Shown: positions 28,084-31,000 of the stretch, in pieces
Position numbering within the stretch: the first letter of the stretch is position 1
How the letters are laid out: each line of letters starts with the position of its first letter
Assembly: GCA_963849325.1 (NCBI GenBank)
Contig: CAWKHF010000002.1
Coordinates: 160,001-224,000 of the forward strand
Source: an uncultured Planctomycetota bacterium
GTDB lineage: Bacteria; Planctomycetota; Planctomycetia; Gemmatales; Gemmataceae
Direction: 5' to 3'
DNA length: 64,000 nucleotides
Made by a program: the position numbers

Positions 28084-31000
28084 CAAGGATGGAGAGAGTT
28101 CCTTCTGATCCTCCTCCCAACGAATTATAAAGTGGGTTTCGCCGATTGCAAGGTCGAATTTCTTCCCTCTCCACCCTCTCCGGCAAGCTCCGGGGACAAG
28201 CTTTCGGAGCCGGCAGCGCAGAAAAGGGAGTGTCCCTCGCCCCGCGCCGCCGGCTCCGAAAGAGCCTCATTTGTCCTGGCGCTCGGCCCTTTCGGGCAAG
28301 ACCTTGGCCTCCTTCCGGTGTGCCCAGGCTCGACCAATGACGAGCGCTTGCCGGAGGCTGGTCACTGGGATCTTCGACTTGCTGCCGACAGTGAGTCGGC
28401 CCTCTCGGAACTCGTGCAACGCTCTCCGCACCTCGTTCGAGACTTCCGAAGTGTAGGTCCGAATCATGATCGCTCTCCTACCCTGTTCCGGTGGGCGATC
28501 GTGTGCGGCCGGGCCACTGCCCGGTCGAATAGTTACATTACAGATAGAGCAAAGAGCGTGCCGGCTTTGCCACGAAATTGCCCTCTGTTACGGAATGACG
28601 CCGGGCGGCTTTGTTACGTTTTGCCCTCTTGTTACGGAATGACGCCGGACGGAGCCGGTCTGTTACGGAATTACAGTAGTGTCTTAAGGTTGCGTTGCAA
28701 TGGCGCGGCTACTACTGGTTTTGCAACGCAATCGCCACTTGCAATTCAGCACGTGGAGACCTGAACGACGCGACCGAAACGGAACCATATGTAGAGGTCG
28801 GGATCGTGTTTTCCGGTTTGAGAATCGCGTCTTGTCGTGATATACCTAGAGGTCTTCGTTCGGATTAGACGCTATCACATTTAGGCCAGCTGGTGCCTCG
28901 CGGGCTATTTCAGCCGGGTTGCCGAGCGTCTGCCGTACTTCCTTCATGGTAAATCCGGCAATCCGTCTTTCCAATTCCTCCACGCTAGGCAAAGTGTCTC
29001 TACTCCGCGAGCGAGTTGCCGTCAGCCACCAACCGATACCGCCAAGACCCATGCAGACCAGTAACAATGTGGCTACACCGCCGACAAGTAGGCGGGGATG
29101 CCGGAACGTCTTCCCTAACGACGTTGCTTGGCTTGTTTCTGTTGCAGGTGGATCGACCCGCACAGCCGTAGGCGGCTTCGGTACAGTTACTTGCTGTTTG
29201 CAGTTACCGCACATCACGGCTTGACCGACGCGCGACGGATCACCAGACAATCGCGTGCCACATTTCGGACAGACGAAGTAGATCATGGATTGTTACTCCT
29301 GACGGGACGAGGCAGATGGAGACCCACGGAGTCATAAGGTATAGCTACATAGAATGTCTAAAATATCTCCTTAGTAGAGCAAGTTCTCCGGCATTGTCTA
29401 TACTCCTCACAGATTCAGGGCTGGACAGAAAGTTTATTCGATAGACGGCGAAATGCAACGGATCAACTGCGGCTACTGTGCCGTTGATCCGTGCTCGGTC
29501 TTTGAGCGGCATTTTCATCTGACCTGAAAAAATTGATTCTTTTGCGAAATCACACTTGACGAAAACAGAATTGCTGCTCACAATCAAAAAGAAGAAGGCC
29601 GGGAGGTTGCACCCTCCCGGCCTCCGGGGATACGAAGCGCCGGGTTCGTCTATTGGTAGGACAGCGGGCTTTAGCCCCGCTTAAGAGGGGTTCGATTCCC
29701 CCACCCGGCATTTCGTTCCTTAATTTTACCAAACGTGGCAACCGCGTCAACCAGAAAGAGGCTCCCATGTCTCCGCGCATCGAAGCCACCGACAAGGATG
29801 GCATTCGGTGGGTGGTTACTGGCAATAGTCATACGGACTTGGAACTTGGCATCACGGCTTTACGAGCCAGTTTTGCCCACAAAGAGGAAGTCGTACCGTC
29901 GCGCCGACGCGGACGACCGCCCAAGAATGGTGTTGCCAAAAGCAACGAAGTTGAGAAGACACGATTGGAAGCAGCCTTGTCCATCCTGCGAGCGATTCAG
30001 AAGGGTGGCGATGCCGGTGCAGATTCATCTTCGCTTCTCTCCGCAACCGGGATCGACAAGCCGGAAGCCAAGGCGCTCGGGCCGATGATGGGGATGCTCG
30101 CCAGAGTCTTACGAGATAATCGTCTGACGCAAAACAAAATCTACATCACAACTGGTTTCAGTCCTAACAAGCGATGGGTTCCGCAAGCGGAAATGAATGA
30201 TGCGATCAAGAAACTGGAAGAAACCATGAAGAATCAACTCTAAATAGCGACTTGTAAACGCTGGCGATGGCCTAGAATCCGTGCGCCACCAGTCCGGGCT
30301 GTATCGTGGAGAGCGGCCCGCGTCTTGGCCGGCGCACTGGCTTTACAAACCAGCGAAGGGACCGGGTTTGCACCCGGCAGGTTCAATTCCCCCGCTCTCC
30401 GTCTTTCCGCAATTGATCTTCAGCAGCTTGCAGCAGGATCGGCCGCGCCCACGCGGCCATGTCGCCCCCTGCGCTCAAAGCTGCCTCCATGACGCGGGCC
30501 TTCTGCGCTGGCGTTACCGGGATGCGCAGGTCTACGTCTTTCGCCTCCGCCTTTGGTTTCATCGGTCGCCCGCGTCGTTTCTTCATGGAAATAAGTGTAG
30601 CAAAAAAAATCTGGATTCAAGCCTCCGGGTTTTTATTGTTGTTTTATTTATACTACAATAAATCAGAGGAGACAGCACTCGCGTTTAAGGGAAATCCCAA
30701 TGAACGCACGCGAAGAACGCGGCCTTGTTATCGCGGCCCTGTGCAAGCTGAACAAGACGCCGGACGGGTGGCTTGTCCCGTCGCAGTCGAACGAGACGAT
30801 CTACCGCGTGAACGTGGAAAAGCAGACCTGCACTTGCCCGGATCACCAAGAGGGTGGGTTCAAGTGCAAGCACCTGTACGCCGTCGAATTCACCGCCAAG
30901 CGGGAAGTCGGCACGGACGGCACCGTGACCGAGACGAAGACGCTGACCTTCACGGAGAAGGTGACGTACAAGCAGGACTGGCCCGCGTACAACCTCGCCA

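Follow-up and report, generated by a model that had tools for sequence, protein, structure and literature searches.

Few natural tRNAs decode stop codons or "wrong" sense codons. The laboratory ochre suppressors of Escherichia coli, supB (tRNA-Gln), supG/supL (tRNA-Lys), and supC (tRNA-Tyr), arose from chromosomal genes by a single base change in the anticodon and retain A37. In stop-codon-recoded phages, the suppressor tRNAs decode TAG or TGA, and the phage genes contain many in-frame stops. In the sections cited here, Mukai et al. describe expressed polycistrons from soil that encode Leu-type tRNAs and allo-tRNAs with UUA, UCA, and CUA anticodons, as well as a tRNA(GGU) with G-1 (2017, Nucleic Acids Res 45:2776; PMC5389517). 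Streptomyces and other bacteria possess mistranslating tRNAProA/ProX that act at sense codons together with a dedicated synthetase, ProRSx, according to the portion of that report used here (J Biol Chem 2023, PMC10404621). Prokaryotic tRNA arrays are covered in the cited parts of Tran et al. 2016 (PMC4758250) and Santamaria-Gomez et al. 2021 (PMC8421152), and suppressor anticodons (CTA, TTA) are absent from the arrays surveyed in the former.

Here, we analyzed a 64,000-nt stretch of DNA (the window) from an uncultured planctomycete, which contains a tRNA gene with a UUA anticodon, hereafter tRNA(UUA). Coordinates without a contig prefix are window positions. The reading that we favor, with a probability of roughly 50%, is that tRNA(UUA) is an ochre-suppressor-type passenger of a SWIM-DDE transposon that is now dead.

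A tRNA with an ochre anticodon and a Glu/Gln-type body

At default settings, ARAGORN calls a tRNA-Stop(tta) at 29639..29710 (+). The same interval scores 52.7 bits against Rfam model RF00005 (window-wide E = 1.8e-8; the match spans the whole model, positions 1-71). As expected of an elongator tRNA, this score exceeds the gathering score of 29 and the cloverleaf is full length. The minimum free energy fold is a cloverleaf (-33.2 kcal/mol, z = -2.6, with 2 of 200 shuffled sequences equally stable), and the centroid fold lacks the T arm. Read directly, the gene is 72 nt long, belongs to class I, and has a 7/5 architecture; CCA is not encoded. The acceptor stem has 7 bp with zero mismatches, the variable loop is 5 nt long, and U8, G18G19, U33, the T loop GTTCGA, and the discriminator A73 are present. 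The anticodon loop of 7 nt places U34 U35 A36, an ochre anticodon, after U33. G37, C38, and an A49-C65 mismatch are oddities. The survey's finding of a well-formed 72-nt class I tRNA with a UUA anticodon, a T-stem A-C mismatch, and a T arm lost from the centroid is therefore borne out. It is the sole UUA tRNA among the 92 tRNA calls in the genome. Judged by its sequence, 29639-29710 is a real cargo tRNA and of the ochre-suppressor type by anticodon.

The gene had also been described as no mutated copy of a host tRNA. This holds to the extent that the closest host tRNA is Glu(ttc), with 52 matches (68%), but tRNA(UUA) is not an orphan in origin. Over the 5' half, 34 of 42 positions agree with a tRNA-Gln(UUG) of sister-genus tRNA arrays, and over the 3' half, 25 of 30 agree with a tRNA-Glu of these arrays, in which as many as 29 tRNA genes are packed into 3 kb. 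All 10 anticodon-stem positions are the same as in the Gln relatives, and loop positions 36-38 differ at two to three. Relative to the nearest tRNA-Gln, acceptor pairs 1-72 and 7-66 are altered on both strands with pairing kept, which speaks for constraint on the tRNA. These similarities indicate that tRNA(UUA) probably derives from the Glu/Gln tRNA class of the bacterial family's tRNA arrays. Membership in tRNA-Gln was judged against the two tRNA-Gln(UUG) genes closest to it, with the E. coli GlnRS identity elements as background: tRNA(UUA) has G1-C72, A73, A36, and G37 where they have U1-A72, G73, G36, and A37, and it is not a tRNA-Gln by this measure. The host genome encodes a GlnRS-type domain, in the C10:124072 region. 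The top metagenomic relative shares 57 of 72 positions with tRNA(UUA), and no orthologue was found. When 252 genomes of the bacterial family were searched with a pattern, eight genomes (including G000) had a match, compared with nine matches to a reversed control pattern, a chance level. The Glu/Gln-type UUA pattern had 0 matches in viral contigs.

tRNA(UUA) lies within a discrete DDE transposon

tRNA(UUA) sits within a discrete DDE transposon at about 28563-35066. The borders of this element, which had been left undefined, are now delimited by inverted repeats, 8-mer clusters, and a 15-nt direct repeat, with the tRNA inside. The left terminal inverted repeat and subterminal repeats (28563..28680, +) comprise two 44-nt tandem units and three copies of the rare 8-mer TACGGAAT, at 28589, 28633, and 28664. 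The right terminal inverted repeat (35017..35066, +) contains an inverted pair of the 8-mer (35029, +; 35053, -) that forms a hairpin. Left and right repeats match imperfectly (12 of 14 positions agree). The 8-mer occurs 55 times in 8.16 Mb, and its sole genomic clusters are the 3 + 2 copies at the element's two ends. Identical copies of the 15-nt direct repeat lie at 28548..28562 and 35060..35074, and we read the last 8-10 nt of this repeat as a putative target-site duplication.

Elements in genomes G216 (two copies), G235, and G213 have left ends with 80-84% identity to that of the window element, each followed 2.6-5.6 kb downstream by a transposase gene (73-86% identical). These intact relatives and the window element have ends and transposase in common, and their cargo is unrelated. 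Cargo enclosed by inverted repeats and a duplication was found in the window element, in the G235 element (at least 15 perfect inverted-repeat positions and a 10-bp duplication), and in a further copy from the same genome as the window (C6:233445-235958), which has a perfect 16-bp inverted repeat (16/16), a 10-bp duplication, and a tRNA inside. Among 10 genomes of the same genus, we found no match to 28100-30690 and no uninterrupted (empty-site) allele. The flanking genes (26553-27890 and 35096-39352) are kept in all 10 of these genomes, yet they are not adjacent there.

The element was originally about 3.4 kb long and now measures 6.5 kb, after two IS insertions. The first part of its transposase gene, encoding the SWIM zinc finger and the start of the DDE domain, is found at 30700..31685 (+) and has 85% DNA identity to an intact copy in G216. 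Its reading frame is broken by the loss of 1 nt near 30999 and the gain of 1 nt near both 31106 and 31482. The first nested IS (31686..33222, +) is unclassified, with other copies at C10:521326-522854 (90%) and C7:118748-120279 (83%). A transposase fragment of 37 nt (33223..33259, +) separates it from the second nested IS (33260..34781, +), which is ISKra4-like (194 bits versus a cut-off of 205) and has 27-nt inverted repeats at its ends. The last part of the transposase gene (34782..34974, +) has an in-frame TAA at 34927-34929, and homology goes on past it. The survey had placed the tRNA upstream, on the same strand, of a decayed SWIM-DDE transposase at 30700-31711. The location, the frameshifts, and the start stand; the end is to be revised, since the gene resumes at 33223-33259 and 34782-34929 beyond the two nested IS. 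With three frameshifts, one stop, and two nested IS in a gene of ~1.25 kb, the window transposase is dead. The window copy is not competent for transposition; relatives in G216 and G235 have open frames. An intact transposase copy in the same genome matches PF01609 (DDE_Tnp_1; E = 5e-21), as an IS4/IS5-type DDE transposon should, and the SWIM family PF04434 (E = 4e-8). Because its IS5 equivalog score (102.6 bits) is below the cut-off of 140, we assign no named IS family and call the transposase IS5-like only.

Related transposons carry tRNAs with many anticodons

The SWIM-DDE transposase was detected in 95 of the 252 genomes of the bacterial family, and relatives occur in Acidobacteriota, Alphaproteobacteria, Dehalococcoidia, and several archaeal lineages. 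Three slot tRNAs of these transposons have one Leu-like class II body (89% column identity) and the anticodons AGC, UUC, and CCC. A model built from these three, R1, finds further versions with UUA (G158:C9), UCC, and GUC. R1 also matches ordinary class II tRNAs (in 151 of 151 genomes), so we kept only matches of about 68 bits or more beside a transposase. UUA tRNAs had been reported beside relatives of the transposase. Our own search independently recovered one such case, at G158:C9, where the tRNA precedes an intact transposase by about 450 nt. Of 69 foreign transposase loci, about 10 had any upstream tRNA, and UUA was present in none of these 13 calls. No tRNA is carried by the four closest long-form relatives of the window transposase, and most sampled relatives have no detectable tRNA. 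One relative, L189, has a cargo of six ORFs with no Pfam family. Taken together, these cases show that the transposon family habitually has as cargo tRNAs in which a single body is combined with a range of anticodons, among them those for stop codons.

In the C6 copy, a 9-mer around the anticodon is present twice, inverted, within 80 nt past the transposase stop. We rejected guide-RNA-like pairing of the anticodon loop with the transposon right end as a general rule, as it was seen in this copy and not in the other 14 tRNA calls. A tRNA at C6:239940 is a genuine tRNA-Sec (72 bits, SelA present) and is unrelated.

Other cargo of the element

Leftmost among the cargo genes is an ORF of 146 aa (28846..29286, -), in which we recognized by eye a zinc-ribbon-like N-terminus and one hydrophobic segment. 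It has no family match, and this stretch has no homologue in the 10 same-genus genomes. A sigma-70-like promoter match (29556..29584, +), by consensus alone and with 9 of 12 positions in agreement, lies about 55 nt upstream of tRNA(UUA). A strong hairpin of 13 pairs at 29594..29625 (-) is followed on the minus strand by a T run and is thus terminator-like for leftward transcripts. On the plus strand, this hairpin would fall in the 5' leader of tRNA(UUA).

Downstream of the tRNA, an ORF of 158 aa (ORF158; 29767..30243, +) ends in TAA and has a Shine-Dalgarno-like AAGAGG 7 nt upstream. It has two homologues among 5.8 billion proteins (60% and 46% identity), is found in 0 of 251 genomes of the bacterial family, and matches no Pfam, NCBIfam, or PHROGs family; its Atlas matches (at most 0.86) are a lead only. 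ORF158 bears no similarity to the ORF upstream of the G158 UUA tRNA (BLASTP E = 2.6).

The second, degenerate class II tRNA-like sequence that the survey had listed was seen at 30308..30401 (+) at relaxed thresholds only: ARAGORN calls it with -ps90, and it scores 28.6 bits with the tRNA-Sec model (cut-off, 47). It has a 9-bp acceptor helix, a long variable arm, a weak T stem of 3 bp, and an anticodon loop of 9 nt, and looks 9/3-like at scores under all curated thresholds. It is possibly a decayed allo-tRNA. A 67-aa ORF (30383..30586, -), ribbon-helix-helix-like by eye, is divergent from the transposase. A homologue occupies the same position beside the C4 transposase copy (45% identity over 58 aa, E = 7e-8), and there is a weak PHROG match (E = 0.005). 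The three cargo ORFs (1.1 kb in total) are open, in contrast to the 1.25-kb transposase gene with its three frameshifts and one stop. The element contains no aminoacyl-tRNA synthetase gene.

Possible function of tRNA(UUA) and alternative explanations

Under the favored reading, tRNA(UUA) is a passenger gene of a DDE transposon whose transposase has both a SWIM zinc finger and an IS5-like DDE_Tnp_1 domain. The anticodon loop of a Glu/Gln-class ancestor would have been remodeled to UUA, and the acceptor stem would have stayed paired through changes on both strands. By function, tRNA(UUA) would group with the anticodon-swapped tRNAs of the SWIM-DDE transposon family. If transcribed, it would be excised by RNase P and RNase Z and charged by a synthetase, with Lys, Glu, and Gln as candidate residues; the charged tRNA would then decode UAA, and UAG weakly, as that residue. 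We infer that it was a working ochre suppressor while the element was alive. Given G37, the A49-C65 mismatch, and the use of TAA to end a fifth of host genes, it is today probably silent or of low activity. TAA is the stop of 426 of 2,006 coding-like host ORFs (21%), in line with the survey's 23% of well-scored genes. Stop-codon recoding is not indicated: the element has one in-frame TAA, and TAA is not avoided as a host stop.

A possible but clearly less probable explanation is that tRNA(UUA) is a mutational relic, in which the loop of an ordinary sense tRNA of the Gln UUG or Glu UUC type drifted to UUA after the element died, leaving a pseudogene that was never selected as a suppressor. Its nearest relatives are sense tRNAs, and it has the anticodon stem of Gln(UUG) unchanged. 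The element is heavily decayed, the adjoining tRNA-like sequence is degenerate, and tRNA(UUA) is a singleton. G37 is atypical in tRNAs with A36, occurring in 1 of 30 metagenomic Glu/Gln-type tRNA(UUA) sequences versus A37 in 29 of 30, and A49-C65 resembles a G-to-A change in the GGGGG/CCCCC T stem found in three Glu relatives. This mismatch, the Gln-to-TAA change in the transposase, and the anticodon, if it arose by a G36-to-A change, all represent GC-to-AT changes, the pattern expected of neutral decay. Because indels at a transposase-like rate would often miss a 72-nt gene, the intactness of the tRNA is weak proof of function. However, drift had no one-step route to the observed loop: it departs from both candidate parents at two or three neighboring positions (36-38), with all 10 stem positions as in the Gln relatives. 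Furthermore, acceptor pairing is perfect despite two double changes, the discriminator and pair 1-72 have moved off the Gln pattern, and UUA recurs as cargo both in the transposon family and in published polycistrons.

We consider it unlikely that tRNA(UUA) acts as something other than a decoder, either with the tRNA-like sequence as RNase P/Z punctuation that frees the ORF158 message or as a regulatory or toxic RNA with the ribbon-helix-helix-like protein. The gene order fits such a role, as the tRNA, an ORF preceded by a ribosome-binding site, and, 600 nt past the tRNA, the tRNA-like sequence follow one another on a single strand downstream of one promoter-like site, and the ribbon-helix-helix-like ORF recurs beside another transposase copy. 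The cited sections of Mukai et al. describe several irregular tRNAs that are charged yet unused in translation, toxic in E. coli, and located near toxin-antitoxin genes (PMC5389517). Punctuation, however, would work without a stop anticodon and without all the positions of the tertiary fold, a partner toxin was not identified, and ORF158 and the 67-aa ORF are without a family match.

A broader reading would see SWIM-DDE transposons as vehicles that move code-changing tRNAs, nonsense and missense, across phyla and into archaea, with tRNA(UUA) and the TAA at the transposase Gln site as a co-evolved pair that ties transposase synthesis to the element's own suppressor; we regard this reading as highly improbable. 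Least probable of all is that the window transposase was made only where its cargo tRNA was active, with the TAA read by a Gln-type tRNA(UUA). In favor, that TAA is the sole in-frame stop in the homology frame and replaces a Gln conserved in the four closest relatives (CAG in G216), and the 5' half of the tRNA is nearest tRNA-Gln(UUG). Against it, the frameshifts and IS insertions kill the transposase anyway, and the acceptor features of the Gln relatives are missing from the tRNA. In four other transposase copies (L173-L176), an in-frame TAA falls at four different residues and ARAGORN calls no tRNA, and we rejected a general pairing of in-frame transposase stops with suppressor cargo. The G158 element has a UUA tRNA and no internal TAA, and under GC-to-AT pressure a Gln codon turning into TAA is the most frequent route to a nonsense mutation.

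Comparison with known systems

Like recoded phages, the window element is mobile DNA with a stop-reading-type tRNA; unlike them, it involves the codon TAA, is a DDE transposon, and contains a single in-frame TAA. Like the E. coli ochre suppressors, tRNA(UUA) has UUA on an ordinary elongator tRNA in a Gln- or Lys-type U34 U35 context. It is unlike them in differing at two to three loop positions from any relative, in having G37, and in being transposon cargo. With tRNAProA/ProX, as presented in the cited portion, it has in common that a natural bacterial tRNA combines mismatched anticodon and identity, and it differs in that the element contributes no synthetase gene (PMC10404621). The nearest relatives of tRNA(UUA) sit in tRNA arrays, whereas tRNA(UUA) is single and away from any array.

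The locus places a stop-reading-type tRNA within a transposon whose ends are newly delimited here. It also calls for caution in annotation, as the anticodon alone is insufficient for naming tRNA calls beside SWIM-DDE transposases.

The closest parallel is with the polycistrons of Mukai et al., whose host is an acidobacterium, compared with a planctomycete here. In the cited sections, these resemble the SWIM-DDE family cargo in the mismatch of body and anticodon, including UUA, UCA, and CUA, in the several tRNAs in a row on one strand, and in the small antitoxin-like genes and a "transposon-related protein" nearby; a SWIM-DDE transposase, inverted repeats, and target duplications are not described in those sections (PMC5389517). 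tRNA(UUA) itself is unlike the types given there: it is a 72-nt, class I, 7/5 tRNA of the Glu/Gln type and not of the Leu type, and its 7/5 branch and 5-nt variable loop are not the 12-bp acceptor branch split 8/4 or 9/3 and the long variable arm of an allo-tRNA. The slot tRNAs of the transposon family, compared by eye with the supplement only, resemble the "tRNA2 tRNALeu (7/5)," "tRNA1 G-1 GGU," and GCU types, and the tRNA of the C6:448563 copy matches the G-1 GGU type as given in that source. The "irregular tRNA polycistrons" of soil transcriptomes would in this way be tied to a concrete vehicle, the SWIM-DDE transposase, and intact elements with intact cargo exist for reporter and transposition assays.

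An ochre-anticodon tRNA within the window

ARAGORN called two tRNAs in the window, one of them a tRNA-Stop with anticodon tta at positions 29639-29710 on the plus strand (referred to as tRNA(UUA)). The Rfam tRNA model matched at every position with 52.7 bits (gathering score 29; E = 1.8e-8), and the minimum-free-energy fold is a cloverleaf of -33.2 kcal/mol (z = -2.6) that was equalled by 2 of 200 shuffles. The sequence provides a 7-bp acceptor stem without mismatch, U8, a 4-bp D stem, G18G19, a 5-bp anticodon stem with a 7-nt loop carrying U33 and U34 U35 A36, a 5-nt variable loop, an ordinary T loop, and discriminator A; CCA is not encoded. 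There are three oddities, G37, C38, and an A49-C65 mismatch. The survey's finding of a well-formed tRNA with an anticodon for UAA was borne out, as were the two weak points it listed: the T-stem mismatch is present and the centroid fold loses the T arm. The gene is structurally complete with an ochre anticodon.

Of 92 ARAGORN tRNA calls in the host genome (8.16 Mb, 14 contigs, 65% G+C), only tRNA(UUA) has anticodon tta. Its closest relative there, a tRNA-Glu(ttc), matches at just 52 positions (68%), so a recent copy of a host gene is excluded, in agreement with the survey. Six further long or odd calls (C1:476146-476235, C2:42094-42188, C6:89965-90057, C7:607872-607966, C7:667884-667975, and C12:106419-106514) include one 4-nt anticodon and class-II-length "Trp," "Ala," "Gln," and "Gly" tRNAs. 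None of the six adjoins a transposase match, and part of them look like G+C-rich false positives.

Borders of the transposon

tRNA(UUA) is located inside a transposon that has defined ends and is now dead. The stretch 28100-30690 is low in G+C (45-60%) and has no counterpart in 10 other genomes of the genus. A 15-nt direct repeat occurs at 28548-28562 and 35060-35074. Directly inside its left copy, a 44-nt unit occurs twice in tandem and the 8-mer TACGGAAT three times; directly inside its right copy lies an inverted pair of the same 8-mer, which occurs just 55 times genome-wide on both strands and forms clusters solely in these five copies. The element ends are mutual inverted repeats, matching at 12 of 14 positions. 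The left-end repeats were found in 11 of 251 other Gemmataceae genomes at 74-84% identity. In four places (twice on G216:C14, and on G213:C359 and G235:C355), a transposase with 73-86% DNA identity to that of the window follows the left end on the same strand at a distance of 2.6-5.6 kb, and the DNA from left end to transposase is unrelated in each. At least 15 terminal positions of the G235 element are perfect, and its target duplication is 10 bp long. In an intact host element (C6:233445-235958), the inverted repeat is perfect over 16 bp and the duplication measures 10 bp; subterminal repeats, leader, tRNA, and transposase follow one another from left to right between its ends.

Based on the direct repeat, the 8-mer clusters, the inverted ends, and the ends shared with relatives, the window element, whose borders the survey had called undefined, extends from about 28563 to 35066. 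It measures 6.5 kb today and measured 3.4 kb prior to two insertion sequence (IS) insertions. The target duplication could only be narrowed to 8-10 bp because the first 7 nt of the 15-nt repeat overlap the right inverted-repeat end.

The intact C6 element (L001:1446-3959), 2.5 kb long, has subterminal repeats of a TTGCAAAAC-like motif, an open transposase frame, and an 88-nt Leu-like class-II tRNA (anticodon AGC) with a conserved hairpin immediately 5' of it; the 9-mer around this anticodon recurs twice, inverted, at most 80 nt past the transposase stop. At locus L188 (G216:C14, ~133860-133900), a right transposon end is followed head to tail by a left end with 9 nt between them, and these 9 nt also flank the left end of the neighboring element L187. 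The elements are either arranged in tandem or nested, or the site is a junction of the kind that a circular intermediate has. In two loci chosen by likeness to the left-end repeats, the orphan RNA motif Acido-Lenti-1 (RF01687) matched with 37.8 bits (gathering score 37) and 33.3 bits, at L193:6793-6840 and L191:78-122.

Decay of the transposase and state of the cargo

The transposase downstream of tRNA(UUA) combines a SWIM zinc finger (PF04434) with a DDE_Tnp_1 domain (PF01609) and is nearest to IS5-type models, with scores under their cut-offs. Its gene is found in eight places in the host genome and is intact in two (C6:234337-235860 and C5:716977-718482). The survey correctly described the window copy as frameshifted but ended it at 31711; the gene resumes with a 37-nt piece at 33223-33259 and a last part at 34782-34929. 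Two nested ISs separate these pieces. The first (31686-33222) is an unclassified 1.5-kb IS present three times in the genome, with other copies at C10:521326-522854 (90%) and C7:118748-120279 (83%) and with ORFs that matched no Pfam family. The second (33260-34781) is ISKra4-like and has its own 27-nt inverted repeats.

We aligned the pieces singly to the closest intact relative, on G216:C14 (85% DNA identity). Compared with that copy, the window gene has lost 1 nt near 30999 and gained 1 nt near both 31106 and 31482; codons differ synonymously in 85 cases and non-synonymously in 67, and there is exactly one in-frame stop, a TAA at 34927-34929. The corresponding codon is CAG in G216 and encodes Gln in all four closest relatives, and homology extends beyond the TAA. 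Full-length transposase copies with a single in-frame TAG, TAA, or TGA make up about one-tenth of the copies tabulated (in G144, G213, G236, G189, G165, G036, G157, G215, G151, G126, and G054). The stops lie at different residues in the six examined, as expected of sporadic decay.

Besides tRNA(UUA), the window element carries a 146-aa ORF on the minus strand, a 158-aa ORF (ORF158) with a good ribosome-binding site, a degenerate tRNA-like sequence, and a 67-aa ORF divergent from the transposase, a homologue of which occupies the same position beside the transposase copy on C4. All three cargo ORFs (1.1 kb) are open, compared with four small lesions in the 1.25-kb transposase; by a post-hoc estimate, about 3.6 cargo lesions would be expected at the transposase's rate. 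The open ORFs favor the cargo being kept.

A transposon family with anticodon-swapped tRNAs

The SWIM-DDE transposase was detected in 95 of 252 family genomes and at 43 loci in metagenome-assembled genomes of Acidobacteriota, Alphaproteobacteria, Phycisphaerae, Polyangia, Dehalococcoidia, Methanosarcinales, and DPANN-type Nanoarchaeota, Micrarchaeota, and Woesearchaeota. According to ARAGORN at a relaxed threshold, 10 of 69 foreign loci have same-strand tRNAs 100-500 nt ahead of the transposase (13 calls in all), and three host copies also have an upstream tRNA; anticodon tta is absent from these calls. Body and anticodon are mismatched: a Leu-like class-II body is combined with AGC, UUC, or CCC (89% column identity and covariation of the 31-39 pair), Ser-like bodies carry UAG or UAA, class-I bodies carry GCU, and GGU occurs on one tRNA that has an extra 5' G. 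A covariance model of the Leu-like body, which matches all class-II tRNAs in 151 genomes, had top hits beside transposases that add UUA, UCC, and GUC. The UUA hit (G158:C9:149409-149496), a tRNA-Stop according to ARAGORN, lies ~450 nt upstream of an intact transposase free of internal stops. The family repeatedly bears anticodon-swapped tRNAs, UUA among them.

The one Leu-like body is thus found with six non-Leu anticodons (AGC, UUC, CCC, UUA, UCC, and GUC) beside SWIM-DDE transposases of different genomes; Leu-like tRNA loci are L001:2193-2280, L075:3143-3232, L097:3110-3200, L143:1501-1589, L172:2428-2516, and L015:4889-4977. Because E. coli LeuRS ignores the anticodon, these tRNAs could place Leu at stop codons and at codons for Ala, Glu, Gly, and Asp. 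At the G158 locus (L194), a 13-nt inverted repeat around the Leu-like tRNA(UUA) would lengthen the acceptor helix, a 131-aa coiled-coil-like ORF precedes the tRNA, and the contig runs out before any left transposon end.

Descent of tRNA(UUA)

Searching the 252 family genomes with tRNA(UUA) yielded DNA matches in 17 others (E up to 0.01), full-length at 75-80% identity, with one shorter match to the first 41 nt at 85%. The full-length matches examined are tRNA-Gln(UUG), tRNA-Glu(UUC), or tRNA-Glu(CUC) genes within dense arrays of up to 29 tRNA calls per 3 kb. Such very dense arrays (up to 29 ARAGORN calls in ~3 kb) are seen in sister genera at L051, L070 (G010:C15), L052/L068 (G036:C55), and others, and the host has three smaller ones (C1:515629-516193, C4:433741-435175, and C12:838476-839555).

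In alignments, the 5' half of tRNA(UUA) is nearest to tRNA-Gln(UUG) of G010 and G011 (34/42 positions; anticodon stem 10/10), and the 3' half to a tRNA-Glu(CUC) (25/30). Relative to the Gln tRNAs, pairs 1-72 and 7-66 are altered on both strands with pairing retained, the discriminator is A instead of G, and loop positions 36-38 all differ; two loop positions differ from Glu-type loops. Therefore, no single mutation leads from any known relative to tRNA(UUA). The A49-C65 mismatch resembles the outcome of a G-to-A change in the GGGGG/CCCCC stem seen in three Glu relatives.

The main alternative is that the element carried an ordinary Gln or Glu tRNA, which mutated to UUA late. The T-stem mismatch and the transposase stop are both GC-to-AT in character, the neighboring tRNA-like sequence is decayed, and tRNA(UUA) has no orthologue, all consistent with this reading. 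However, the loop was reworked between two unchanged stem strands, the acceptor stem is compensated, and UUA recurs within the transposon family.

A Glu/Gln-type UUA tRNA pattern gave nothing credible in family genomes outside the host (8 genomes matched, the host included, versus 9 control hits), 30 loci in metagenomes, and zero matches in viral contigs. ARAGORN called tRNA-Stop(tta) in 28 of the 30 loci; position 37 is A in 29 and G in one of the tRNA sequences returned, and the best matches tRNA(UUA) at 57/72 positions. None of the 30 (26-53% G+C) contains the transposase or any cargo protein of the window element. tRNA(UUA) is thus a singleton of a type that exists elsewhere. Among these metagenome contigs (L111-L140), six have a tRNA-Leu(taa or caa) within ~100 nt after the UUA tRNA, the slot of tRNA-Gln(UUG) in planctomycete arrays; L113 has a CUA as well as a UUA tRNA, and in L132 the UUA tRNA closes a Gln(ctg)-Gln(ctg)-Gln(ttg) run. 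Some of these tRNAs may derive from organisms that read TAA as Gln.

Predicted expression and charging

A promoter-like site lies at 29556-29584. A transcript starting there would comprise a leader hairpin, the tRNA, ORF158, and the tRNA-like sequence, from which RNase P and RNase Z would release tRNA(UUA) for CCA addition. By E. coli identity rules, the retained U34 U35 and A73 would suit LysRS, and classical Lys ochre suppressors carry the identical anticodon change. tRNA(UUA) also retains the D-stem pairs U11-A24 and U13-G22 of Glu/Gln tRNAs and is without the U1-A72 and G73 of its Gln relatives; the host encodes a GlnRS-type domain and GatB. G37 beside A36, together with a weakened T stem, points to low suppression efficiency. 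TAA is a common stop, as the survey held (23% of well-scored genes), and ends 426 of 2006 coding-like long ORFs (21%), so a strong ochre suppressor would be costly. Back-up stops follow 11 of the 426 TAAs, which is no notable excess.

Alternatively, tRNA(UUA) may be non-decoding, either punctuating RNA processing or acting as a regulatory or toxic RNA. The pairing of a Gln-type tRNA(UUA) with a TAA at a transposase Gln codon is most likely a coincidence, since the window transposase is dead for other reasons, other TAA-bearing copies have the stop at four different residues without any tRNA, and tRNA(UUA) has lost its Gln acceptor features.

Comparison with published irregular tRNAs

The finding is real and on firmer ground than the survey could show: tRNA(UUA) is a cargo tRNA of ochre-suppressor type within a transposon with defined ends. 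Any present activity is probably low. The full-text literature searches made for transposons or insertion sequences with suppressor tRNAs and a SWIM transposase found no relevant report. Natural irregular or suppressor tRNAs on mobile DNA are already known. Polycistrons of irregular tRNAs were reported from soil metatranscriptomes (Mukai et al. 2017, PMC5389517), and the lists in that paper include "tRNA2, tRNALeu (7/5)" with UUA, allo-tRNAs with UCA, UUA, and CUA, and "tRNA1" with G-1 and GGU, or with GCU. It also describes toxicity in E. coli, toxin-antitoxin genes nearby, and one "transposon-related protein." The tRNAs in the slot of our transposon family match these irregular polycistrons, a likeness judged by eye. 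Section 16 and supplement part 24 of that paper hold no description of the SWIM-DDE transposase or its ends. What is new here is the Glu/Gln-type class-I body, the planctomycete host, and the explicit tie to a SWIM-DDE transposon bounded by inverted repeats and target duplications.
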